From contig MVZN01000001.1 in the NCBI GenBank assembly GCA_002069125.1, positions 5,909-69,908 on the forward strand: a stretch of 64,000 bases of DNA, given 5' to 3'. The notes below the pieces were generated by a model, which did not search any database, was not told the origin of the DNA, and saw only the letters and a program-made list of their open reading frames with translations. Source of the DNA: Spirochaetes bacterium ADurb.BinA120. Its GTDB lineage: Bacteria; Spirochaetota; UBA4802; UBA5368. This document shows, piece by piece, positions 1 through 63,390 of this stretch (the stretch's first letter is position 1; the number at the start of each line of letters is the position of its first letter). Both the position numbers and the translations under genes were made by a program.

Positions 1-211
1 TCCCGCGTCTTCCACCATCTCTCAGGTATTTCTGAAAAGACGGCTGATATTTCCCCAGATCATGTAGCAAACCCGCAATACGAAATATCTCCTTGTAACT
101 AGGTTTGGATGTAAAACTTACAGCCAGTTCGGCCGTCCCGGTTAAATGAGAGGCAAGCTGATGCCAATCGGCCTCAGGTTGATCGGCTATGGTATGCGCA
201 TAATAATTCAT
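1..211 (-). CDS. cas3: Partial CDS (N-terminus only, continues off the left edge): CRISPR-associated Cas3-type HD nuclease domain
   Basis: Minus-strand ATG at 209-211. Translation is MNYYAHTIADQPEADWHQLASHLTGTAELAVSF...RIAGLLHDLGKYQPSFQKYLRDGG. H...HDxGK...FQ is the Cas3 HD-domain signature. AGGAA lies about 12 nt upstream. Confidence 0.5.
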   Translation of the reverse strand, partial: MNYYAHTIADQPEADWHQLASHLTGTAELAVSFTSKPSYKEIFRIAGLLHDLGKYQPSFQKYLRDGGRRG

Positions 212-1055
212 ATTCAAACCAACATTCCTCTTCTTCGCTCTTTCCAATCTACATCCCAACAGGGACACAAAGAGTAATTCTTGGGAATTATCCTTTTAGT
301 TTTCTATTATTCTTCCTTTTTCGGGTTTTCCCTCTTCATGACCGTTTTCAACCACGACTATCAGATTGACGTCGGAGTTTTTTGTATCCGTGCACACTTT
401 GATTTCCGCTATTCCGAACTCGTCCGTTCTGGCGTTTATTTTAATCGCCTTCATAAATCCTACTTTAAAGCATGGATTGGAAATACAATATAAATTATCG
501 TTTTCGTCGTCGGCGAAATGCCCTCCGCGTGGTTAATCCACACGCCCGTGAGGGATGCGTCAATATATCTAAGCCTTGCCATAATAATGAAAAGCCGTCG
601 AGAGAATAAAAATATACAATATTGCTTTTCACTATATCATTGTATATTCCGCATAATATATCATACACCCGTCTGAAAAGTCAAGGTCAATTGACATACT
701 ACACAAATGTCCGTGCGGGATATGGTGCGTATATGGCTTCCAAACTTACCGTGCACCGGGGCGGATCCTTTCATTCAGATTTCAAGCAAGCCGAAAGCCG
801 GAAGTCGGTCAAGCCGCGCCTCCATGCTTTTCAGTGATTTCTTCCCGTTAAGCAAGAAGGATGAAATTACCATGATTTAAGCCAATTTAAAAGGCAGGGA
901 AAAAAATGGTATACCCTGAAGGTCTATCTTGCAGAGTTTTCGAACACCCTAATCTCCGATGGTGGGCCTTTTATCTCTGCCGCTTTTTAAGCCACTTGTT
1001 TTGCGTTAAAAAGGTGGGACTTAAGGTTTTTTATTATCTTAAGACGCGGAGGAGG

Positions 1056-1125
1056 AAGCTTACCGCCCTCACCCCCCCGGCCCCCTCTCCCATTTAGATC
1101 GGAAGAAATGAGAGGGGGGGCCAGG
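1056..1125. repeat. R3 hairpin element: CCCCCTCTCCC - loop - GGGAGAGGGGG (10-11 bp stem)
   Basis: Same element recurs at about 60124, 60336 and 60596. Confidence 0.7.
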
Positions 1126-1164
1126 TAGAACAAGTTCTAAGGCATAAACATAAAGGCTTCCTCA

Positions 1165-1245
1165 TGCCGAGCTTCCAACTTTCAACTTTGAACTTTCGAC
1201 TGTTATCCCCCGGCGCTCTGCGCCACCCCCGGAGGGGGTTTAGGC
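1165..1245 (+). repeat. R1 mosaic repeat: 7-bp AACTTT[C/G] tract followed by double-hairpin core CCCCCGGCGCTCTGCGCCACCCCCGGAGGGGG
   Basis: Near-identical core at 9921, 26990-27320 (reverse-complement), 46800-47110, 60257, 60533 and 63103. Confidence 0.85.
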
Positions 1246-1706
1246 TAATGTCGCCTGCCAGATACCGACTCACACCGGCCGGCACATCGAACATTCATTA
1301 AGCAGCGCGCACGGATGCGCGCGAGGCAAGGTCGCCCGCTATGCCGTCCTGGCGCAGGCGACACTTCCGACATCCTGTCGGTCGGATAGTCCAGGAGGGA
1401 CCTTCCGCAGCCGAACAGAAAGTCCATGGAAGAACCGACAGAAAAACGAAAAGAAACATTTCGACGGATAATCCCGAATTGCCTTTGATACATACATGCG
1501 GAAAGCCCAGGCTCCGCGCCGCTTGAGCGGCAAGCCCCCCGGCGTTTGAGGGCGCGTTTTTCTTTGGTTCTTTCTTTTTCCGCGATGAAAAAGAAAGAAC
1601 CAAGCCCAACGAGGCAGGGAGGCCTCACCCCTGCATGGGGCCCCATGCGAATCCTCGTTTTCTCCGCGCCTAAAAAGAAAAGGCGTAACCCCCCCGACGG
1701 GCGCGT

Positions 1707-3344
1707 TCATCCCCGCGAGCGTGGGGATTCCGTGGTCGTTCCTGCGACTAGAAAGCCTCGCGAACCGATGGCGACCGCAAGCTTGATAAGGAGCAGGAGT
1801 ATGAGGGGCGACCAGAGAGCAAGGCCGAAGAAGCGTACGCCAAAAATATTTTCGTCGGGAGCGAATGTAAAGACGGGCAGAAAACACCCGCCAATTATGG
1901 CGGTTTCTATTAAGAGCAGGGCGAACACGTCCAAAAACGCGCCGGGAATCCTAAACTGAAGATAGAGCGGGCTGCCGCGAATAAGCCGTATGGTTAGCGC
2001 CGTTACGAATACCATTATCACAGCGTAAAGCGCCACGGCCGCGGAGTGGATGTGCGCCGAGTATATGATGCGCATGGCAACCCCTGCGGCGGCCACCACT
2101 GTTCCGTTTACGAGAAGCAGCATTCCCGTTCCGGCGGTCTGCCGCCGCATTACCATGGCGGTCAGCAGCAAAAGCGCGAGTGAGAAGATAAGCCTCTGGT
2201 ACAAAAGCAGGGTCTCCTTGCAGCGCTGCGGTCTTTCCAGAATGGCGGCCGTAAGGCGTTCGTCGAGCCGGGCATCATCCTCCCTGGCGGTCAGCCGGGG
2301 CGCGGGGATTATCGGGTTCACGAATCGGAAGGCGGCGACCATGCGCTCGCGAAGCGCGATCGATTCCTTAAGGATAGGTCCATAGTCTTTGCCGAGTACC
2401 TCGACAAGCGGGGGAACGGCGGAAAGGGCGGGAAGGGGGGCGCCGGCGGCCGCCGCCACGGTTGGGGCGATTGCCGCGTGATAAACGGTCCGCGAGACGC
2501 TTGTGCCGGTCAGAGAAGGCGCGAAAAGATACAGCGGAACGGCAATGGACGCGTCGTCGGTCCCTCCGTGGTTGCCGTCAACGTTCATGCCGTGGTCGGA
2601 GGCCACTATGACGAGCGCGCCGGGAATCCTTTTATCGAGCAGGCGGAATATCCCGCCGAGCAGGCCGTCGATGCGCGTGATCGAAGAGAGATAGCGCCTT
2701 CCGCTGTTGGTCCCGGTCGCGTGCGCTTCGTTGTCGGGCGAGAGGAAGTGAGCTACCGTAAAATAGGGGAGATCATTGCGGCGGATCATGGTCTCCACGG
2801 CGCGGGCCACCTCGGCCGGGTCGTCCCGCTCGCAACACTCGGCGGGGACGTAGAGCGCCTCTTTGCCGAACATCTCTTTGTACCATTCGAATCCCACAAC
2901 GGCGGATTTAAGCCCGACCCTGGAAAGCGAGTGAAACACCGTTGGCGCGTTGCTGCCGGCGCGCGAGCGGGTTTCGTTATTGACGACTCCGTGCATGTGG
3001 GGAGGAGCGCCTGTCAAGATCGATGCGTAATTCGGGGCCGACACGGTGGGAACCATGGCTCGGGCGTTCTCGTAGCGGAGCCCGAACCTTTGCCAGCGGG
3101 CCGATATTTCGGGGCAGATTTCGGGATCGTACAGGCTGTCGCGCGTCGCGCCGTCGAGAATAAAGAGGAGTACCGAAGGATACCGCGGGGTGCGCGGTTC
3201 CGGGTCCGGCGCGGCGGTTTTTATGGAATTCTCGGGGTATGGGCCGTGGAGGGGCGGAACGAAGCGGCCAAACCGATAATCGTTGACGAAAAGCAGGCGC
3301 ACCAGAAGCGCGAGCGAAAGCGCGATAAATACCGCTTTTTTCAT
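1707..3344 (-). CDS. Alkaline phosphatase superfamily / type I phosphodiesterase-nucleotide pyrophosphatase with signal peptide and C-terminal multi-TM domain
   Basis: MKKAVFIALSLALL signal peptide. Metal-binding core motifs (FILDG..., SAPNYASILTG, ASDHGM, GNHGG). About six hydrophobic helices in the last 150 aa. Confidence 0.75.
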   Translation of the reverse strand: MKKAVFIALSLALLVRLLFVNDYRFGRFVPPLHGPYPENSIKTAAPDPEPRTPRYPSVLLFILDGATRDSLYDPEICPEISARWQRFGLRYENARAMVPTVSAPNYASILTGAPPHMHGVVNNETRSRAGSNAPTVFHSLSRVGLKSAVVGFEWYKEMFGKEALYVPAECCERDDPAEVARAVETMIRRNDLPYFTVAHFLSPDNEAHATGTNSGRRYLSSITRIDGLLGGIFRLLDKRIPGALVIVASDHGMNVDGNHGGTDDASIAVPLYLFAPSLTGTSVSRTVYHAAIAPTVAAAAGAPLPALSAVPPLVEVLGKDYGPILKESIALRERMVAAFRFVNPIIPAPRLTAREDDARLDERLTAAILERPQRCKETLLLYQRLIFSLALLLLTAMVMRRQTAGTGMLLLVNGTVVAAAGVAMRIIYSAHIHSAAVALYAVIMVFVTALTIRLIRGSPLYLQFRIPGAFLDVFALLLIETAIIGGCFLPVFTFAPDENIFGVRFFGLALWSPLILLLLIKLAVAIGSRGFLVAGTTTESPRSRG

Positions 3345-3422
3345 GCGGCCGCCGCGCCATGAAAATCTATTGACACGATCATAGGCCCGCTTTAAGCTCC
3401 CCACTTCGTAATCACGCCCGAC

Positions 3423-4547
3423 ATGAGGTCCGCAGCTTTACAGACAATGAAAGAGACGAAGAAAAATCCGGCGCCGCAGGCGCGGCATTTTGTCCGGTTC
3501 GTTGATAAGTATTCCCCGCGAATTGACCTGTCAATAGAGAATTACTTCTCCGGGAAAAAAAAGGCCGCCGAACATCCCTTCATGGCGGAGATCTGGTCGG
3601 ATCTCGCGGAGTACTGCCTGCGGCCCGGCAAAAGGGTCCGCCCGCTCGTGCTCATCGCAGCCTTCCGCGGATACGGAGGCGAAAACTCCGCCATGCGGGC
3701 GATCATAGCGATGGCGGCCTCGCTCGAGCTAATGCACTCGTTCCTTCTCATACAGGACGATATCATCGACCGCTCCCACGTGCGCCGCGGCGGGGCGGCC
3801 TTTCACCTATTGATGCAAGGGCGTTTTTCGGGCGGTACGATAAACGAGGGCGTGGGGTCCGATGTCGCGCTGGTGGCGGCGGACGTGCTGTTCTGCGACG
3901 CCCTGCGGCTCGTTCTCGGCGCCGGGATAGGGGCGGAGGCCAAGACCGGCTTCCTTCGCCTCTTCGCGGACACCTATGAGCGTACGGCCTGGGGACAGAT
4001 CCTCGACATCGTAAACACCATGCCGCGCTCCCTTCACGCGGGCGATACGGCGGCGCACGAGGTCGGCATGATGAAGACAGCCTATTACACCGTCTACTAT
4101 CCGCTCCTGATGGGCTGCACGCTCGCGGGGGCGGCGACGGCCGGCGAGCGCCGCGCAATCGGGCGCTTTGCCCTGCCGCTCGGCCACGCCTTCCAGGTGC
4201 GTGACGACATACTTGGCGTCTTCGGCGACAGGGCCGAGATGGGGAAGTCGGCGGATTCGGACATACTCGAGGGCAAGAAGACGGTTCTCGTGCAGAATAC
4301 GATCGAGCGCCTGGGGCCTGTGGAAGGAAAGCGCTTCGAGTCCCTCTTCACGAAGGCCGCAAAGTCCGCGTCGGACCTGGACGAGATACGGGGGATGATA
4401 CGGGATAGCGGCGCGCTGGATAAGGCCGTGGATATGCACCGCAGGCTCGTCGACGAGGCCGTTCGCGCCTCCTCATCCCTCCTGATCGCCGATGCGGAGC
4501 GGGAGGTGCTCCTCGGATTGTGCGCCTCCATAGGAGCGCTTAAATAG
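3423..4547 (+). CDS. Polyprenyl synthetase family (FPP/GGPP synthase-like)
   Basis: Two aspartate-rich motifs, LLIQDDIIDRSHVRRG and FQVRDDILG. Confidence 0.8.
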   Translation: MRSAALQTMKETKKNPAPQARHFVRFVDKYSPRIDLSIENYFSGKKKAAEHPFMAEIWSDLAEYCLRPGKRVRPLVLIAAFRGYGGENSAMRAIIAMAASLELMHSFLLIQDDIIDRSHVRRGGAAFHLLMQGRFSGGTINEGVGSDVALVAADVLFCDALRLVLGAGIGAEAKTGFLRLFADTYERTAWGQILDIVNTMPRSLHAGDTAAHEVGMMKTAYYTVYYPLLMGCTLAGAATAGERRAIGRFALPLGHAFQVRDDILGVFGDRAEMGKSADSDILEGKKTVLVQNTIERLGPVEGKRFESLFTKAAKSASDLDEIRGMIRDSGALDKAVDMHRRLVDEAVRASSSLLIADAEREVLLGLCASIGALK

Positions 4548-4638
4548 ATTGCCGATATAGATTATGGTATACTCACCACGGACTTCCGGCACGGCCCGCT
4601 CGAAGGGCGCGTGACCGATCAGAGACAAGGGAGCGATA

Positions 4639-5331
4639 ATGAGAGCGGTTAAAAAGAAACGAACCCCGGACGAAAATTCCGGGAAATACCACAAGGATAC
4701 CTTCGACAAAATTTCGGACAAGAAACGCGAGAGGATAATAAAGATATCCACCGTGGAATTCGCCGAAAAGGGATTCAACGGGGCGAACGTAAATGTCATC
4801 GCGAACAAGGCGGGAATCAGCATAGGCTCAATGTACAATTACTTTTCGAGCAAGGAGCACCTCTTTCTCACCGTAGTGGACGAGGGATACAAGCTGCTCG
4901 AGGCGGCGTTTGCGGGAGCGGATCTGTCCAACGGCGACCTGTTCGACAAACTCGAAACGATCATCCGCGTAGCCCAGAAACATTCGCGTTCGCATCCGCA
5001 TTTCGTCCAGCTATACCAGGACATCACCACCGAAAGCCTCGCGCACCTTTCGGCGCGGCTGTCCCGCAAGATCGAGAACATCTCGGCCGTATTTTACAGA
5101 CATTACATCAACGAGGCCAGGGAGAAGGGCCTGGTGGACCCCTCCATCGACGAGCACGTCGCCTCCTACTGCATCGACAACATCATCGTACTCATGCAGT
5201 TCTCGTACACCTCCGAGTATTACAAGGAGCGTCTGCGCACCTTTGTGGGCGAGGACGCCCTCGAGGACGACGAGCGAGTTATTAAGGGGATGATGGATTT
5301 CATAAGGCACGCTATCGGGGCGCGCAAGTGA
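4639..5331 (+). CDS. TetR/AcrR family transcriptional regulator
   Basis: N-terminal HTH (RERIIKISTVEFAEKGFNGANVNVIANKAGISIGSMYNYFSSKEHLF). AAGGGAG RBS. Confidence 0.8.
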   Translation: MRAVKKKRTPDENSGKYHKDTFDKISDKKRERIIKISTVEFAEKGFNGANVNVIANKAGISIGSMYNYFSSKEHLFLTVVDEGYKLLEAAFAGADLSNGDLFDKLETIIRVAQKHSRSHPHFVQLYQDITTESLAHLSARLSRKIENISAVFYRHYINEAREKGLVDPSIDEHVASYCIDNIIVLMQFSYTSEYYKERLRTFVGEDALEDDERVIKGMMDFIRHAIGARK

Positions 5332-5381
5332 GCCCGGGGGCATCGATGTCCCGCCGGGGGGATGATGCGGAATAAAACCCG

Positions 5382-6809
5382 ATGACCATCGATATCGCCG
5401 TTATTCTGATATATATTGTACTTATCAATATAATCGGGCTCTGGTTTTCGGGCGGCTCGAGCGTAAGCGATTATTTCCTGGGAAACCGCTCGGTGCACTG
5501 GTTCCTGGCATGCCTCTCCATCGTCGCCACGGAAACTTCGAGTCTCAGCTTCATCTCGATTCCGGGGCTCGCCTATGCGAGCGGAACGGGGTTTTTACAG
5601 GTCACCTTCGGCTATCTCGCGGGCCGGATGCTTGTGGCCGCCTTCCTACTGCCGCGATACTTTCAGGGCGAATACGAAACCGTGTACGAATTCCTCCAGC
5701 GCCGATTCGGGCGGACGTCGCGGCGCGTGGTTTCGGTCATTTTCCACATAACGCGCCTCTTCGCCGACAGCGTACGCCTCTTCGCAACGGCCATACCGCT
5801 TACCGTAATGACCGGCTGGGACTACAGGCTTTCCCTGGCGGTTATCGGCGGGGCTACGTTCATTTACACCTTTTACGGGGGCATCCGCTCAGTCATCGTG
5901 ACGGACGCCCTGCAGCTCGCGCTGTACCTGTTTTGCGTGGGGCTCGGCGCGTACTGCGTGATGGACGAGCTCTCGCTCTCCCTCGGCGGCGTGTTCGCCC
6001 TCATACCTTCCGCCGATCTGGCCTTCGTCTCCTCCGGCCTTGGCGGCGGCGCGGCGAAGCTTTTCGGCTCGTACAACCTTCTCACCGGCATCGTCGGCGG
6101 GGCGTTTCTCTCGTTCGCCTCGCATGGCACGGACCACCTCATCGTTCAGCGCGTCCTGTCCTGCCGCGACGCCTCGTCGGCCCGCAAGGCCATGATAGCG
6201 AGCGGCTTTCTGGTTATCATGCAGATAGCGCTTTTCCTCCTGTTCGGCCTTTTCATCAAGGCGCTGTTCGGGGGCCGGCACTTCGACTCGAGCGATTCGA
6301 TAGTTCCATACTTTATCGTAAACCATCTGCCAGCGGGACTCAGGGGGCTAATGCTCGCCGGCATCTTCGCCGCGGCCATGTCGACCTTAAGTTCGTCCAT
6401 CAACTCGCTCGCATCATCGACCGCGCTCGACCTGCTGAGGCTCAAGGAGCGCCGGCTTTCCGAGCGCTGTAAAGTGGCCGCGGCTCGCGCAATCGCCTTC
6501 TTCTGGACGCTCGCTATCATCGGCGTCTCGGTGCTATTTCACGATTCGAAGAACCCGCTGGTGGAGGTCGGACTATCCATCTCCTCGGTGACTTACGGCG
6601 GGGTACTGGGGATCTTCGTTCTGGGCAGGTTCACCGACGGCATGGACCCGCGCGCGGCCCTTTTCGGGGTTTTTGCCGGGGTTCTCGCCGTGGTATCGGC
6701 CATGGCCTTTAGCTCGATTTTCTGGCTGTGGTACGTTGCGCTTGGATTCGGGGTGTGCGTGGCCGCGGCGCTTGCCGCCTCGAAGGCGGTCAGTTGGGGT
6801 CTTCGATGA
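5382..6809 (+). CDS. Sodium:solute symporter family (SSF) transporter
   Basis: About 13 TM segments. SSF-like motifs (DYFLGNRSV, GGIRSVIVTDALQ). Confidence 0.75.
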   Translation: MTIDIAVILIYIVLINIIGLWFSGGSSVSDYFLGNRSVHWFLACLSIVATETSSLSFISIPGLAYASGTGFLQVTFGYLAGRMLVAAFLLPRYFQGEYETVYEFLQRRFGRTSRRVVSVIFHITRLFADSVRLFATAIPLTVMTGWDYRLSLAVIGGATFIYTFYGGIRSVIVTDALQLALYLFCVGLGAYCVMDELSLSLGGVFALIPSADLAFVSSGLGGGAAKLFGSYNLLTGIVGGAFLSFASHGTDHLIVQRVLSCRDASSARKAMIASGFLVIMQIALFLLFGLFIKALFGGRHFDSSDSIVPYFIVNHLPAGLRGLMLAGIFAAAMSTLSSSINSLASSTALDLLRLKERRLSERCKVAAARAIAFFWTLAIIGVSVLFHDSKNPLVEVGLSISSVTYGGVLGIFVLGRFTDGMDPRAALFGVFAGVLAVVSAMAFSSIFWLWYVALGFGVCVAAALAASKAVSWGLR

Positions 6810-7737
6810 TCTTCAGCGAGGAATGCGATTCGAAGTGCTCCGGCGGTTCCCGGTCGAAGAGCAGGATGATCTCGGTTCGGACCTTGTTTCTTATTACGAA
6901 ATAATATTCCGATGTGAGCTTTCTCACAAGATCGATGCCCCGGCCGGTCTCGGAGACCTTGTCCGATATCTCCTCTCCTGTTTCGTACGCGCGAAGAATC
7001 ATCTGCGACTCCTCGACGGCCTTCCTGATGCTGTCCAGTATCTTATGTTTGGTCAGTTCGCCCTTGTAGTCGGTGATGGAAATGCCGTAAGCGTCCGCGC
7101 TGTGGGCGAAGAACAGGTCGACAAACTCCCCCTTCTTGAGGGTCACCTGGACGCGCTCCTCCTTCTCGCGAGTGTAGCCGTGCGAATGATAGACCGAGTT
7201 GATGATCAGCTCGTTGAGTATGAGGTTGAGGACCGATTTGTTCCGCACCTTTATCCCCCATTCATCGAGCTGCTTCATGAGGGTCGCTATTGAACCCCTT
7301 ATCCGGCCGGAGGCCGTTATGCGAATCTTCATAATGTCTTCGGCAGGAACGTCCATGTAGTTTTCCAGTCCGAAGATGTTTTTCCGGGTGATGAGTTTCC
7401 GGGCAAGGCTTACCAGCTCTTTTTCCCTAAGCGGCTTGTGGAGCACGTTTCCGATCCCCTCGCGGAAGATGTGCTCGAAAAAGGTATCGATGTCCTTTTC
7501 GGTGACCATGATGGCGGGGATGAAGGGATAGTAGTTCGATATATAATTGTACAGGTCGAAGGCGTTGTCGCCCGGCAGCTCCACTTCGGATACGATGAGG
7601 TCGAAATCGCTCGATTTGAGCCGGGCCATGGCGTCAAAGGCCGATTCGCAGCTTTCGACGTTATAGCCGGCTTCCGTAAACATGCGCGCGATCGTCTCGC
7701 GGTACGGGGTGAAGTCGACGATCAGAATATTGTACAT
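6790..7737 (-). CDS. Response-regulator receiver domain fused to histidine-kinase-like ATPase (anti-sigma-factor-kinase type) domain
   Basis: N-terminal REC (ILIVDF...DLIVSEVELPG...). C-terminal HATPase_c-like region (LILNELIINSVYHSHGY...ETGRGIDLVRKL). Its 3' end overlaps the SSF gene by 20 bp on the opposite strand. Confidence 0.65.
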   Translation of the reverse strand: MYNILIVDFTPYRETIARMFTEAGYNVESCESAFDAMARLKSSDFDLIVSEVELPGDNAFDLYNYISNYYPFIPAIMVTEKDIDTFFEHIFREGIGNVLHKPLREKELVSLARKLITRKNIFGLENYMDVPAEDIMKIRITASGRIRGSIATLMKQLDEWGIKVRNKSVLNLILNELIINSVYHSHGYTREKEERVQVTLKKGEFVDLFFAHSADAYGISITDYKGELTKHKILDSIRKAVEESQMILRAYETGEEISDKVSETGRGIDLVRKLTSEYYFVIRNKVRTEIILLFDREPPEHFESHSSLKIIEDPN

Positions 7738-7993
7738 TGGGTCACCGTGTCCATGACCGGAATGCCCGCACCGGGCCCCGGGGGCTTATGCCTTATTATC
7801 GGCCATTTTGTCCTAAAGGATAATACGGCCGGCGCGATACCAAAATCTCTTGGACCGGAGGCCCGGTCCAGTGTAAAATATGGTTGAAGAACACTGCGGC
7901 CCTGTGATATTATCCAACCGCTTGCGCGGATCGTTCCATGCCCGGCGGCATTCGGACGCTACAACGCCCCGGTAATCGTCGAGGGGCGGATTC

Positions 7994-9896: not shown

Positions 9897-10012
9897 ACTC
9901 CAGAGCTTCGAGACTAACGCCCCCGGCGCGTTGCGCCACCCCCGGAGGGGGTTTTGCTGATGCCGATGGCTTTTCTTTCAGCTTTGAACTTAGAACTTTG
10001 AACTTTCGACTG
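9897..10012 (+). repeat. R1 mosaic repeat: leader CTCCAGAGCTTCGAGACTAACG, core, then AACTTT[C/G] heptamer tract
   Basis: Core CCCCCGGCGCGTTGCGCCACCCCCGGAGGGGGTTTTGCTGATGCCGATGGC, followed by gctttgaacttagaactttgaactttcgact. Confidence 0.85.
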
Positions 10013-11490: not shown

Positions 11491-12229
11491 CAAATGGCCC
11501 GATTACTATAAAAAGGACGTGGCGACCCACTATTGCCCCGGCTGCGGTCATGGGATCGTACACCGCATAGTTGCAGAACTCATGGAGGAGATGGACTTAG
11601 GCAGGCGCGCCATCTGCGTCAATCCGGCCGGATGCGCGGTGTTAGCCTACAAGTATTTCGATATTGACATGATCGAGTCGGCCCACGGCCGGGGCACCGC
11701 GATAGCCACCGGGGTCAAGCGCGTCAAGCCCGAACTGTTCGTCTTTACCTACCAGGGCGACGGCGACCTTTCGGCCATAGGGACAGCAGAGACCATACAT
11801 TCGGCGAACCGCGGAGAGCACATAACGGTCATATTCATAAACAACGCGGTCTACGGCATGACTGGCGGCCAGATGGCGCCCACCACGCTTGTCGGCCAGC
11901 GCACGACAACCACCCCCGGAGGGCGTAACCCCAAGTTCGACGGGTTTCCGCTCCACATCACCGATGTCATTGCGAAGTTTCCCGGCGTAATCTACGCCGA
12001 GCGTGTCGCCGTAAACGGGCCGGCCGGAATCCAGAGGACCAAGAGGGCCATCCGGAACGCCTTTCAGGTGCAGGTGGACGGATTGGGCTATTCCATAGTG
12101 GAGGTGCTCTCCCCGTGCCCCACCAACTGGAAGATGACACCGGAGGACTCGTTCAAATGGATCACCGAGGTCATGGCGAAGGAGTTCGTTCCCGGGGTGC
12201 TTACCGATAAAAGGGGAGGCGGGGACTGA
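11477..12229 (+). CDS. korB: 2-oxoacid:ferredoxin oxidoreductase beta subunit (TPP-binding)
   Basis: YCPGCGHG and GDGD...NN TPP-binding motifs. Overlaps korA. Confidence 0.85.
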   Translation: MKLLNKWPDYYKKDVATHYCPGCGHGIVHRIVAELMEEMDLGRRAICVNPAGCAVLAYKYFDIDMIESAHGRGTAIATGVKRVKPELFVFTYQGDGDLSAIGTAETIHSANRGEHITVIFINNAVYGMTGGQMAPTTLVGQRTTTTPGGRNPKFDGFPLHITDVIAKFPGVIYAERVAVNGPAGIQRTKRAIRNAFQVQVDGLGYSIVEVLSPCPTNWKMTPEDSFKWITEVMAKEFVPGVLTDKRGGGD

Positions 12230-12230
12230 T

Positions 12231-12782
12231 ATGCTGGTAAAGATACTGTTCGCGGGAAGCGGCGGCCAGGGCGTCCTCACCATGGGTAACATCCTCGGCA
12301 ATGCAGCCATGTTCGAGGACTTACAGGTCACCTACCTGCCGGCCTACGGCGCGGCCGTACGCGGAGGGACCGCAAACTGCACCATCTGCATATCCGACGA
12401 GGAGATAGCATCGCCGGTGGCCTCCGCGCCGGACTTCGTGGTGGCGCTCAACCATCCCTCGGCGGCCGCGTTCAGCACCAGGCTCGAGCCGGGCGGCCAG
12501 ATGATCTACAATTCGGACCTCGTGGGCGAGCTTATAAGCCGCGGCGACATCACCATGTTTCCCGTGCCGGCCAACGGAATCGCCAAGGGCCTGGGCAACG
12601 AGCGCTCGGCGAACATGGTTATGCTGGGCGCCTTTATAAGATTGACAAAAGTGATAAAAGTCGATTCGATTTACCGGAGCGTCGAGTACATGTTAGGCGC
12701 GAAGAAGAAGCTGGTGGAGATTACAAACCGGGCCGTGGAGGAGGGCTACAACGGCTTTCCCTTCGGCAACGGTTCATTATAA
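12231..12782 (+). CDS. korC: 2-oxoacid:ferredoxin oxidoreductase gamma subunit
   Basis: ILFAGSGGQGVLTMGNILG gamma-subunit signature. Confidence 0.85.
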   Translation: MLVKILFAGSGGQGVLTMGNILGNAAMFEDLQVTYLPAYGAAVRGGTANCTICISDEEIASPVASAPDFVVALNHPSAAAFSTRLEPGGQMIYNSDLVGELISRGDITMFPVPANGIAKGLGNERSANMVMLGAFIRLTKVIKVDSIYRSVEYMLGAKKKLVEITNRAVEEGYNGFPFGNGSL

Positions 12783-26989: not shown

Positions 26990-27320
26990 CCGGCACTCGG
27001 TATCGGAAAAACCCCCTCCGGGGGTGGCGCAGCGCGCCGGGGGATAACAGTCGAAAATTGAAAGTTCAAAGTTGAAAGTTGAAAGTTTAGCCATCGGTAT
27101 CGGCAAACCCCCCTCTGGGGGTGGCGCAGCGCGCCGGGGGATAACAGTCGAAGGTTGAAAGTTCAAAGTTGAAAGTTTAGCCATCGGTATCGGGAAAACC
27201 CCCTCCGGGGGTGGCGCAGCGCGCCGGGGGATAACAGTCGAAAGTTGAAAGTTCAAAGTTGAAAGTTTAGCCAACGGTATCGGCAAAACCCCCTCCGGGG
27301 GTGGCGCAGCGCGCCGGGGG
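26990..27320 (-). repeat. Tandem array of four about 90-bp R1 units (reverse orientation): core AACCCCCTCCGGGGGTGGCGCAGCGCGCCGGGGG plus heptamer linkers
   Basis: Units start near 27001, 27091, 27181 and 27271, differing by only a few bases. The last unit is truncated. Confidence 0.9.
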
Positions 27321-27508
27321 CGTTGAGGTGGCCGGCCGCGCCACCGGGCTATAAATTTAACACAAATCCGTTAATAAGTACAGGTTTCTTTCTTGACACC
27401 CGCTTGCTCAGGGCGTTTCAAATTAGATACCGTCATGGCCCGGCGGATTCTGGCCGTGACTCATGTTCGAGGAGGAACGGCAATAAATAGAGGGCACAGG
27501 AGGTGGTT

Positions 27509-46781: not shown

Positions 46782-47112
46782 AGGGCTGCGGAGGCTAACG
46801 TCCCCGGCGCTCTGCGCCACCCCCGGAGGGGGTTTTGCTGATGCCGATGGCCAAACTTTCAACTTTCGACTGTTATCCCCCGGCGCTCTGCGCCACCCCC
46901 GAAGGGGGTTGCCCGATGCCGATGGTCAAACTTTCAACTTTCGACTGTTATCCCCCGGCGCTCTGCGCCACCCCCGGAGGGGGTTGCCCGATGCCGATGG
47001 CCAAACTTTCAACTTTGAACTTTCAACTTTCGACTGTTATCCCCCGGCGCGCTGCGCCACCCCCGGAGGGGGTTGCCCGATGCCGATGGCCAAACTTTCA
47101 ACTTTTAAGGGC
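46782..47112 (+). repeat. Tandem array of four R1 units (forward orientation), each core plus TTGCCCGATGCCGATGGCCAAACTTTCAACTTTCGACTGTTAT linker
   Basis: Leader CTCCAGGGCTGCGGAGGCTAACG, then four repeats of CCCCCGGCGCTCTGCGCCACCCCCGGAGGGGG with heptamer linkers. Confidence 0.9.
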
Positions 47113-60119: not shown

Positions 60120-60750
60120 TTCTTTTAACGCCCTCACCCCCGGCCCCCTCTCCCATTAAGCTCGGGAAAAAAGGAGAGGGGGAGTTCACGCGATGAGCTT
60201 GAGGTTTTTGGCTCAATTATGAGAGATTCTCACTCCAGGTATTCTACGAGCCTAATGCCCCCGGCGCGCTGCGCCACCCCCGGAGGGGGTTTTGCTGATG
60301 CCTATGGCCGAGCTTTGAACTTTGAACTGCTTAACGCCCTCACCCCCGGCCCCCTCTCCCATTAAGCTCGGGAAAAAAGGAGAGGGGGAGTCTCATGGTA
60401 GAATAAGTTTGAAATCGTAACCATAAAGCACCAGCTCACATACTTTCAACTTTTACCTTTGAACTTTCGACGGCCTTTCCTTTCGACTGCCTCTCCTCAA
60501 CTTCCAACTGCTTACCTCCTTCGCCCCCGGCGCGCTGCGCCACCCCCGGAGGGGGTTTTGCTGATGCCTATGGCCGAGCTTTGAACTTTGAACTGCTTAA
60601 CGCCCTCACCCCCGGCCCCCTCTCCCATTAAGCTCGGGAAAAAAGGAGAGGGGGAGTCTCATGGTAGAATAAGTTTGAAATCGTAACCATAAAGCACCAG
60701 CTCACATACTTTCAACTTTTACCTTTGAACTTTCGACGGCCTTTCCTCTG
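60120..60750. repeat. Composite repeat region: R3 hairpin (x3), R1 core (x2), heptamer tracts, and a near-perfect tandem duplication (period 276 bp)
   Basis: 60257-60490 and 60533-60746 are essentially identical over about 214 bp. R3 at 60124, 60336 and 60596. Confidence 0.85.
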
Positions 60751-63084: not shown

Positions 63085-63390
63085 CTTACTCCAGGGGTGC
63101 GGAGACTAACGCCCCCGGCGCGCTGCGCCACCCCTAGAGGGGGTTTTGCTGATGCCTATGGCCGGTTGGATTATTTACGGATAGGCCATATATGCTCGTC
63201 GTGCAAAAGTTAGGGGTTACAACCCCTTGTTCTCTGAAGATATTAGCCTGATTCCACGAAGAATCCCCTTATTACAGAGTTAGGGGCTGTAGCCCCTTGT
63301 GGACGATGACCTATTCAAACTTTGACCTTTGACCTTTGACCTTTGACCTTTGAACTTTGAACTTTCAACTTTCGACTTTCGACTGTTTCC
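63085..63390. repeat. Composite repeat locus: R1 (forward) - R2 (reverse) - 7-bp microsatellite (CTTTGAC x5, AACTTTG/C)
   Basis: Mirror image of the 26806-27320 locus architecture. Confidence 0.85.

Follow-up and report, generated by a model that had tools for sequence, protein, structure and literature searches.

The 64-kb window analysed here (64,000 nucleotides of contig MVZN01000001.1, positions 5,909 to 69,908) comes from Spirochaetes bacterium ADurb.BinA120, an uncultured member of the Spirochaetota whose habitats are anaerobic digesters and activated sludge. It opens inside a cas3 gene that reads leftwards out of it, preceded by several hundred base pairs of AT-rich DNA, and the question is therefore which system the gene begins and whether the AT-rich DNA is that system's own leader and promoter. 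An earlier interpretation made from the window alone (the sequence-only reading) took it to be just that, a non-coding region acquired together with a type I cas operon. Comparison with public metagenome contigs, here labelled L001 to L039, leads to a different answer: the gene is the start of a type I-C CRISPR-Cas locus, and the DNA before it is probably the mosaic edge of an acquired, low-GC (guanine plus cytosine) locus, with a promoter that would serve whichever effector cassette is present, while at least three such cassettes appear to have been swapped in place among otherwise near-identical strains.

Translated on the minus strand, positions 1-211 give a stop-free sequence, MNYYAHTIADQPEADWHQLASHLTGTAELAVSFTSKPSYKEIFRIAGLLHDLGKYQPSFQKYLRDGGRRG, which corresponds to the N-terminal 70-72 residues of a Cas3 HD nuclease-helicase. 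The 70-residue fragment matched the NCBIfam model TIGR01596 (cas3_HD) at E 4.2e-11 and 43.2 bits, narrowly missing the cutoff of 43.45, and Pfam HD and Cas3_HD were also matched. The ATG lies at 211-209, and an in-frame TTG at 217-215, the start picked by gene callers on identical contigs, is preceded at a distance of 8 nt by an AGAGGA ribosome-binding site. Over positions 1-3344, contigs L002 and L003 match the window at 99.91-99.97% identity; they then run on into a full operon in the order cas3-cas5c-cas8c-cas7-cas4-cas1-cas2, followed by a leader and an array. The called genes include no cas6. The full-length Cas3 of L003 has 721 residues, of which 1-72 are 100% identical to the window; it scored 83.2 bits with cas3_HD (E 2.2e-23), and its helicase part, which lies outside the window, scored 141.6 bits with cas3_core (cutoff 102.45; E 3.3e-41). 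The sequence-only reading had predicted the cas3 of a type I system reading out of the window, and had named a protein without a superfamily 2 helicase domain, followed by no cas genes, as the outcome that would overturn it; instead, these 99.9% identical contigs carry the helicase core, the genes from cas5c to cas2 and the array.

The remaining proteins place the system within subtype I-C: Cas5c reached 149.4 bits with TIGR01876 (cutoff 85), Cas8c/Csd1 297.4 bits with TIGR01863 (cutoff 218.65), Cas7/Csd2 298.6 bits with TIGR02589 (cutoff 182.25) and Cas1c 482.4 bits with TIGR03640, cas1_DVULG (cutoff 385), and Cas4 and Cas2 were likewise above their NCBIfam cutoffs. In L002 a 169-bp leader lies 3′ of cas2, after which comes an array of the 32-nt repeat GTCGCGCCCCGCACGGGCGCGTGGATTGAAAC; the arrays hold at least 22 identical repeats of 32 nt with spacers of 33-36 nt. 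The gene set and order, the lack of cas6, the position of the array after cas2, the spacer length and a 32-nt repeat ending in ATTGAAAC are all as in type I-C (Dvulg) systems. Judged from its predicted genes and array, the locus is an ordinary, complete type I-C CRISPR-Cas system with nothing essential that is unusual.

It does differ from the Dvulg type in being polymorphic for the whole effector module. The flank at 310-1059 is common, at 99.6-99.97% identity, to strains with three effector cassettes, and beyond it the sequences diverge completely; only positions 1-309 of the window belong to cassette 1. In variant 2 (L004 and L009-L011), which is bona fide type I-C by NCBIfam, Cas3 has 770 residues, Cas5c 252, Cas8c 664 and Cas7 321. 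Variant 3 (L012) has the order cas5-cas8-cas7-cas3 and is I-C-like, its proteins falling below the cutoffs and its Cas8 being unrecognisable. Among the three variants, identity is 24-35% for Cas3, 30-34% for Cas5, about 22% for Cas8 and 24-29% for Cas7, as against 92-100% for Cas4, 99-100% for Cas2 and 100% for Cas1, and the 32-nt repeat and the leader are the same in all three.

The edges of the exchanged segment do not coincide. On the 5′ side, the cas3 start of variant 2 comes about 54-62 nt after the point at which that variant departs from the common sequence, and variant 3 and the variant-1-like contig L019 share about 45 nt more than variant 2 does; on the 3′ side, the common sequence resumes 11 nt before the cas4 ATG in variants 1 and 2 and about 66 nt inside cas4 in variant 3. 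Such staggering points to ordinary homologous recombination, with the flank and the adaptation module as homology arms, rather than to a site-specific mechanism. The stretch between the flank and the cassette 1 cas3 is cassette-specific: a diverged form of it precedes the variant-1-like cas3 in L019, and it is missing from variants 2 and 3. Contig L005 stops exactly at the fork, as is expected if variants co-occur in one sample. Apparent deletions in L006 proved to be scaffold gaps filled with Ns. Separately, cassette 1, and no other cassette, has a non-coding gap of 486 bp (39% GC; L003 18698-19182) between cas7 and cas4, which ends at the 3′ recombination junction and has no repeat-like sequence inside.

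The arrays also bear on the history of the exchange. L003 and L009 have the same first spacer, and spacers 1-5 of L012 recur as spacers 2-6 of L010; leader-proximal spacers vary between contigs and deeper ones are shared. The variation suggests that spacer acquisition is ongoing in the population, and the sharing is a hint of recent exchange, to be read with the fact that short reads do not phase the 2.1-kb shared module.

We next consider the composition of the flank. Positions 250-1030 have a GC content of 41.6%, compared with 56.9% for the whole window, and nowhere else in the 64 kb does an 800-bp stretch have so low a GC content; the AT-richness seen earlier is therefore real, although the values given for it (about 45% against 60%) were off. 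The stretch without an intact gene does not end near 1030 as had been thought but reaches from 212 to 1706, only its low-GC part ending at about 1059; position 1706 is the stop of a gene of the phosphodiesterase/sulfatase family on the same strand as cas3, whose 545-residue product is found with exactly the same sequence on many public metagenome contigs. Relatives of this gene in reference genomes have other genes downstream and no cas genes, and those other genes have left no relic in the window. The GC content steps from 42% in the flank to 37-40% in the effector genes, 49% in the adaptation genes and 57% in the host; these steps fit horizontal acquisition.

Several searches of the flank returned little. 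Rfam at permissive E-values gave only chance matches of microRNA models to palindromes, a tRNA and transfer-messenger RNA scan found none, and blastn of positions 212-1165 against plasmid and phage collections found no match. RNA folding gave z-scores of -1.2 to -2.5 and no assignable structure, and an AT-rich inverted repeat 3′ of the promoter is not conserved in L020. A tblastn search of the flank with the cas, PIN-domain and antitoxin proteins of four loci recovered antitoxin and PIN relics only and no relics of cas genes.

The low GC content, which is like that of the cas genes, the promoter-like sites and the lack of Rfam, tRNA, plasmid or phage matches are what would be expected of a purely non-coding promoter or leader acquired with this operon. 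We nonetheless regard that reading as quite improbable. The flank holds a relic of a gene with clear homologues and a decayed repeat, and the same DNA, at 99.6% identity or more, precedes three effector cassettes that are unrelated to one another at the DNA level; for these reasons it is not simply the operon's own leader or promoter. Nor does the term leader fit it in the CRISPR sense: the true leader and array sit after cas2, and the flank, which is not similar to that leader, abuts just one repeat relic, matching the repeat at 23/32. The flank is more probably the mosaic upstream edge of a low-GC acquired locus.

A promoter role for the AT-rich DNA is plausible. Between the palindromic elements described below and cas3, the cas strand has sigma-70-like matches at two sites only, 684-655 and 640-611; they are consensus matches, which make the role a predicted one. 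No terminator-like site was found between them and cas3. Variant 2 in particular has no room for a promoter in the 54-62 nt that separate the shared flank from its cas3 start codon, which places its promoter in the shared flank. Since the sites occur only upstream of the repeat relic and no terminator follows them, we infer that, whichever cassette is present, cas transcription would start within the shared flank at about 645-650 (minus strand).

The first of the two relics contradicts the earlier statement that the flank has no convincing open reading frame (ORF). A 52-residue ORF on the minus strand at 296-454 is a truncated copy of a conserved protein: its residues 1-48 are 100% identical to the 77-residue protein P0001 of other strains of the same species. 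The family of this protein had 120 cluster representatives at E < 1e-3 among 1.84 billion proteins, and a strongly conserved C-terminal motif, YDFSDLxGxLxWxGDxxxxQRxLRDEW, which the window copy has lost. The NCBIfam model NF050107 (RelN antitoxin) matched 11 of 45 family members at E of 0.01 or below (best 2.1e-5), all under the 70-bit cutoff, and matched the 52-residue form weakly (E 0.051); a Pfam scan of the family and a reference-genome scan for the antitoxin gave no match, and an AlphaFold model (predicted template-modelling score 0.29) was uninformative.

In all four intact contexts read (L007, L018, L038 and L039) a PIN-domain gene overlaps the 3′ end of the antitoxin gene, and a small antitoxin gene with an overlapping downstream PIN gene is the classic layout of a type II toxin-antitoxin pair. 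The closest intact relatives (73-75% identical) lie with their PIN partner within type I-E cas operons, in the gap between cse2 and cas7. The intact relatives, of 70-77 residues and overlapping a downstream PIN gene, are like VapBC-like type II pairs, and the C-terminal tail of the family resembles that of YiiF (PDB 2k5j). They differ from the curated RelN and VapBC-like antitoxins in having no match above cutoff, and the window copy differs further in being 52 residues long with neither the motif nor a toxin partner. In variants 2 and 3 the PIN relic retains only residues 1-13 and 78-105 (tblastn, L009). The window variant has in addition lost about 430 bp, comprising the antitoxin 3′ end and the PIN relic, between the short repeats GAAAAAGGAAGAA and GAAAAAAGGAATAA; the blastn breakpoint at 13035 of L002 and L003 corresponds to window position 310, and in alignment L009 and L019 retain the deleted DNA. 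With the PIN gene deleted and the antitoxin truncated, the window carries a relic and not a pair.

The second relic is a solitary degenerate CRISPR repeat. It had been stated that no CRISPR repeats are visible in the AT-rich DNA; this holds in so far as the flank contains no array, but one degenerate repeat is present at 530-561 on the minus strand. This is the best match to the repeat on both strands of the window (23/32; next best 20), no score above 21 arose when the region was shuffled 1000 times, and in a gapped scan it was the sole outlier, with a score of 17 against at most 14 elsewhere. It lies about 320 nt upstream of cas3 on the same strand and is kept by each of the three variants and by the relatives L019-L023, a single diverged lineage in which the 32-nt unit has 3 substitutions (3/32, compared with 7/75 and 9/144 in the surroundings). 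The part that would be the 5′ handle of a CRISPR RNA (crRNA) has changed, reading TGGATTAACCAC instead of TGGATTGAAAC, and the predicted RNA fold takes an alternative hairpin, the canonical repeat hairpin being weakened. Ungapped and gapped scans for a second repeat-like unit gave matches at chance level only, among them GTGTCCCTGTTGGGATGTAGATTGGAAAG, just before cas3, which we considered as a second unit and rejected.

A repeat in this place might be a working CRISPR-derived regulator, either of the CreR/CreA type or a standalone crRNA-like RNA. The flank would then be an autoregulatory or addiction module in which the repeat RNA and Cascade repress either the cas operon promoter or that of the toxin-antitoxin cargo. 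The match is significant and in cas orientation, and the repeat stands between the candidate promoter and the toxin-antitoxin gene, upstream of the effectors, as in type I-D loci, in which the DNA between mini-arrays and cas genes is enriched in toxin-antitoxin genes and has been described as a shuffling hotspot (Shmakov et al. 2023, PMC10120712). Its location just upstream of the cas operon is also that of CreR-type elements, which typically lie upstream of type I cas genes and for which type I-C CreA/R entries exist (Li laboratory, bioRxiv 10.1101/2024.10.29.618823), and it has been retained in the three variants and in a relative that is about 8% diverged.

The further features of such a mini-array, two repeats with a spacer and a seed target flanked by a protospacer-adjacent motif (PAM), were not found. 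In the flank and the cas3 start of variants 1 and 2, seed matches stayed below 10/12 and TTC/TC-flanked matches at or below 9/16; in the same variants, the sequence adjacent to the repeat had no partial match at TTC/TC-flanked sites within about 1.5 kb on either side, and a search for shared 9-mers gave nothing above chance. The cas3 start matches the promoter region at 14/16 positions (repeat D7), a similarity that was set aside as being at chance level by hand estimate. Because there is neither a second repeat nor a PAM-flanked target, a CreR/CreA-type regulator is not supported; the altered handle, the alternative hairpin, a substitution rate equal to that of the flanks and the fact that the toxin it might have guarded is already dead point the same way, and we consider a working regulator improbable.

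The AT-rich DNA and the repeat could also be what is left of a second array, formerly upstream of the cas operon, with its old leader and an array that recombination between repeats had collapsed to one repeat. Leaders are AT-rich, as is the DNA directly 5′ of the repeat, in the right orientation, and the repeat is most degraded at both ends, as terminal repeats often are. In addition, the differences of L022 and L023 from L003 number 1 in 323 positions upstream of the relic and 19 in 251 from the repeat onward (L020 is diverged on both sides); this step, within about 40 nt of the 5′ edge of the repeat, indicates a crossover there, and such a recombination junction would suit a former array. 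However, the flank resembles the functional leader over no more than 4 nt at the junction, their alignment scored 31 against a shuffle maximum of 30, all of it from the repeat itself, no further repeat remnants were found at the spacing of about 66 nt, and with the present data a collapsed array is indistinguishable from a decayed mini-array. We therefore hold a second array to be possible but rather unlikely.

The single unit, altered handle, weakened hairpin, lack of a target, dead toxin and surroundings-like rate of change favour a relic. Most simply, the repeat would be what is left of a collapsed upstream array, or of a mini-array by which the toxin-antitoxin cargo was formerly controlled, and it and the antitoxin relic are most likely dead remnants, of the cargo on the one hand and of the mini-array or array on the other, rather than working parts of the system.

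Together, these features suggest how the locus may be built. Read in the direction of the cas genes, about 375 bp of featureless AT-rich DNA are followed by the two sigma-70-like sites and the decayed repeat, then by the 5′ two-thirds of the antitoxin gene, whose 3′ end went with the PIN relic in the deletion, and lastly by the short cassette-specific 5′ untranslated region (UTR) with the cas3 ribosome-binding site. Transcription would begin at the shared-flank promoter, probably the region of the old toxin-antitoxin promoter, and the transcript would pass through both relics into cas3 and the Cascade genes, with no terminator-like site intervening. The homology arms are probably the flank at one end and cas4-cas1-cas2-leader-array at the other, and between them whole effector modules (cas3, cas5, cas8 and cas7) have been exchanged by ordinary homologous recombination. 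A stronger version, in which the flank is a fixed docking platform made of a promoter, a 5′ UTR repeat recognised by Cascade or Cas5c and a formerly addictive PIN pair, which stays put along with the adaptation module and array while whole cassettes are exchanged between the two, seems to us very improbable. If it were true, the population would keep its spacer memory while escaping effector-specific anti-CRISPRs, and through the 5′ UTR repeat all cassettes that come in would be under one and the same feedback control.

At its far end the low-GC block is bounded by host elements resembling repetitive extragenic palindromic (REP) sequences. They are short, GC-rich, imperfect palindromes present in multiple copies in intergenic DNA, often in tandem clusters with a period of 75-90 bp and runs of AAGTTGA-type heptamers between units; REP1 (core CCCCCGGCGCGCTGCGCCACCCCCGGAGGGGG) has 13 copies in the 64 kb and REP2 (GCCCTCACCCCCGGCCCCCTCTCCCA) has 4. 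Contig L001 departs from the window at 1165/1166, within the REP cluster, and at 12101-12526 joins the phosphodiesterase gene to recX through one REP unit. The arrangement could be taken for an allele without the island; we rejected this, since recX is preceded by rplM-rpsI both in L024, from the same species (5327-6000, with six REP units before recX), and in L026, from a relative at 81% identity (4995-6627). For the same reason, L001 suggests a REP-mediated rearrangement or a chimeric join. Further out, in GC-normal non-coding DNA, lies a perfect inverted repeat that is not followed by a T-run, and L012 (variant 3) leaves the common sequence exactly at this palindrome, passing into 133 nt of unrelated DNA. 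The roughly 450 bp between the REP cluster and the phosphodiesterase stop (1251-1706; 58% GC) have no convincing gene and no Rfam match.

We place the probability of the reading as a whole, namely a type I-C locus start with a mosaic flank, a promoter in the shared flank and in-place exchange of effector modules, at about 0.72, and several points weigh against it. The window's cas3 is cut off at position 1, and the DNA further left was read from other assemblies. Short-read assemblies cannot phase the 0.9-kb flank or the 2.1-kb adaptation module, and the linkage of the cassettes to one chromosomal site rests on the agreement of several independent assemblies, not on long reads. Positions 1-2000 have 7 promoter-like matches where 2.0 are expected, and AT-rich DNA favours such matches; the close contigs are all at least 99.6% identical, and conservation among them consequently says little about function. 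The repeat changes about as fast as its surroundings, which fits a relic, but the comparison is drawn from few sites. Finally, the left boundary of the acquired block is ambiguous, and may be the GC step at about 1059, the REP elements at 1063-1238 or the break of L012 near 1575.

Table 1. Coordinates of the features discussed, in the window unless a contig is named.
Feature	Position	Strand	Basis or remark
5′ end of cas3, HD-domain N-terminus	1-217	-	Translation and cas3_HD match; remainder left of the window
Cassette-specific cas3 5′ UTR	218-295	-	Read from the sequence; includes AGAGGA site 226-231
Truncated RelN-like antitoxin gene, 52-residue ORF	296-454	-	Homology to the 77-residue P0001 and its family
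Deletion junction	310-322	-	Imperfect short repeat GAAAAAGGAAGAA / GAAAAAAGGAATAA
Degenerate repeat (psi-repeat) GACGCATCCCTCACGGGCGTGTGGATTAACCA	530-561	-	23/32 to GTCGCGCCCCGCACGGGCGCGTGGATTGAAAC; orientation of cas genes and array
Weaker sigma-70-like site	611-640	-	9/12 consensus match
Best sigma-70-like site	655-684	-	TTGACT-18 nt-TATATT, TG before second hexamer; 10/12 consensus match
Low-GC block before cas3, about 42% GC	212-1059		Composition; 310-1059 common to strains with three cassettes
Composite of two host REP-like elements	1063-1238		REP2 1063-1135, REP1 core 1204-1238; bounds the low-GC block
REP1 sites	1204-1238, 9917-9951, 27012-27324, 46798-47072, 60254-60555, 63110-63143		
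REP2 sites	1063-1092, 60126-60627		
Perfect 17-bp inverted repeat	1564-1603		TTGGTTCTTTCTTTTTC / GAAAAAGAAAGAACCAA, 6-nt loop; past the phosphodiesterase gene
Effector cassettes in the same slot	L002/L003 13036-19171; L009 10471-16607; L012 about 1725-7954		Left of window position 1
Arrays compared	L002 21306-, L009 18742-, L010 18742-, L012 10012-, L015 10592-, L017 8902-		
Intact antitoxin-PIN pairs in type I-E operons	L007 6001-6617; L018 3391-4007		Gene context

Like the standalone repeats of Shmakov et al. and the CreTA elements, the degenerate repeat lies outside the array, upstream of toxin-antitoxin cargo and effectors, but here there is one repeat with no recognisable spacer or PAM-flanked target, and the cargo is an inactivated protein pair of the PIN type in subtype I-C, whereas the published toxin-antitoxin cases are mainly from I-D. 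That CRISPR-Cas systems evolve by exchanging effector against adaptation modules is an established principle (Koonin and Makarova 2019, PMC6452270), to which the present locus conforms, its adaptation module, leader and repeats being kept while the effector module is replaced. In contrast to the tree-level incongruence usually cited, the case concerns one population, with flanks at 99.6-99.97% identity, a Cas1 at 100% and three cassettes of the same subtype at 22-35%; the module swap is thus sharper and more recent than those usually cited, and only this resolution is unusual.

The start of a standard type I-C cas3 behind patchwork upstream DNA is in itself of little consequence. The RelN-like/PIN pair joins the list of CRISPR-cas cargo: two type I-E operons contain it, and a relic of it precedes a type I-C one. 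The swap is the more useful outcome, since it offers a clean and recent example of effector-module exchange in one natural population, and the system would lend itself to asking whether swaps of this kind are driven by anti-CRISPR pressure and to what extent one and the same repeat is tolerated by divergent Cascade and Cas5c proteins.

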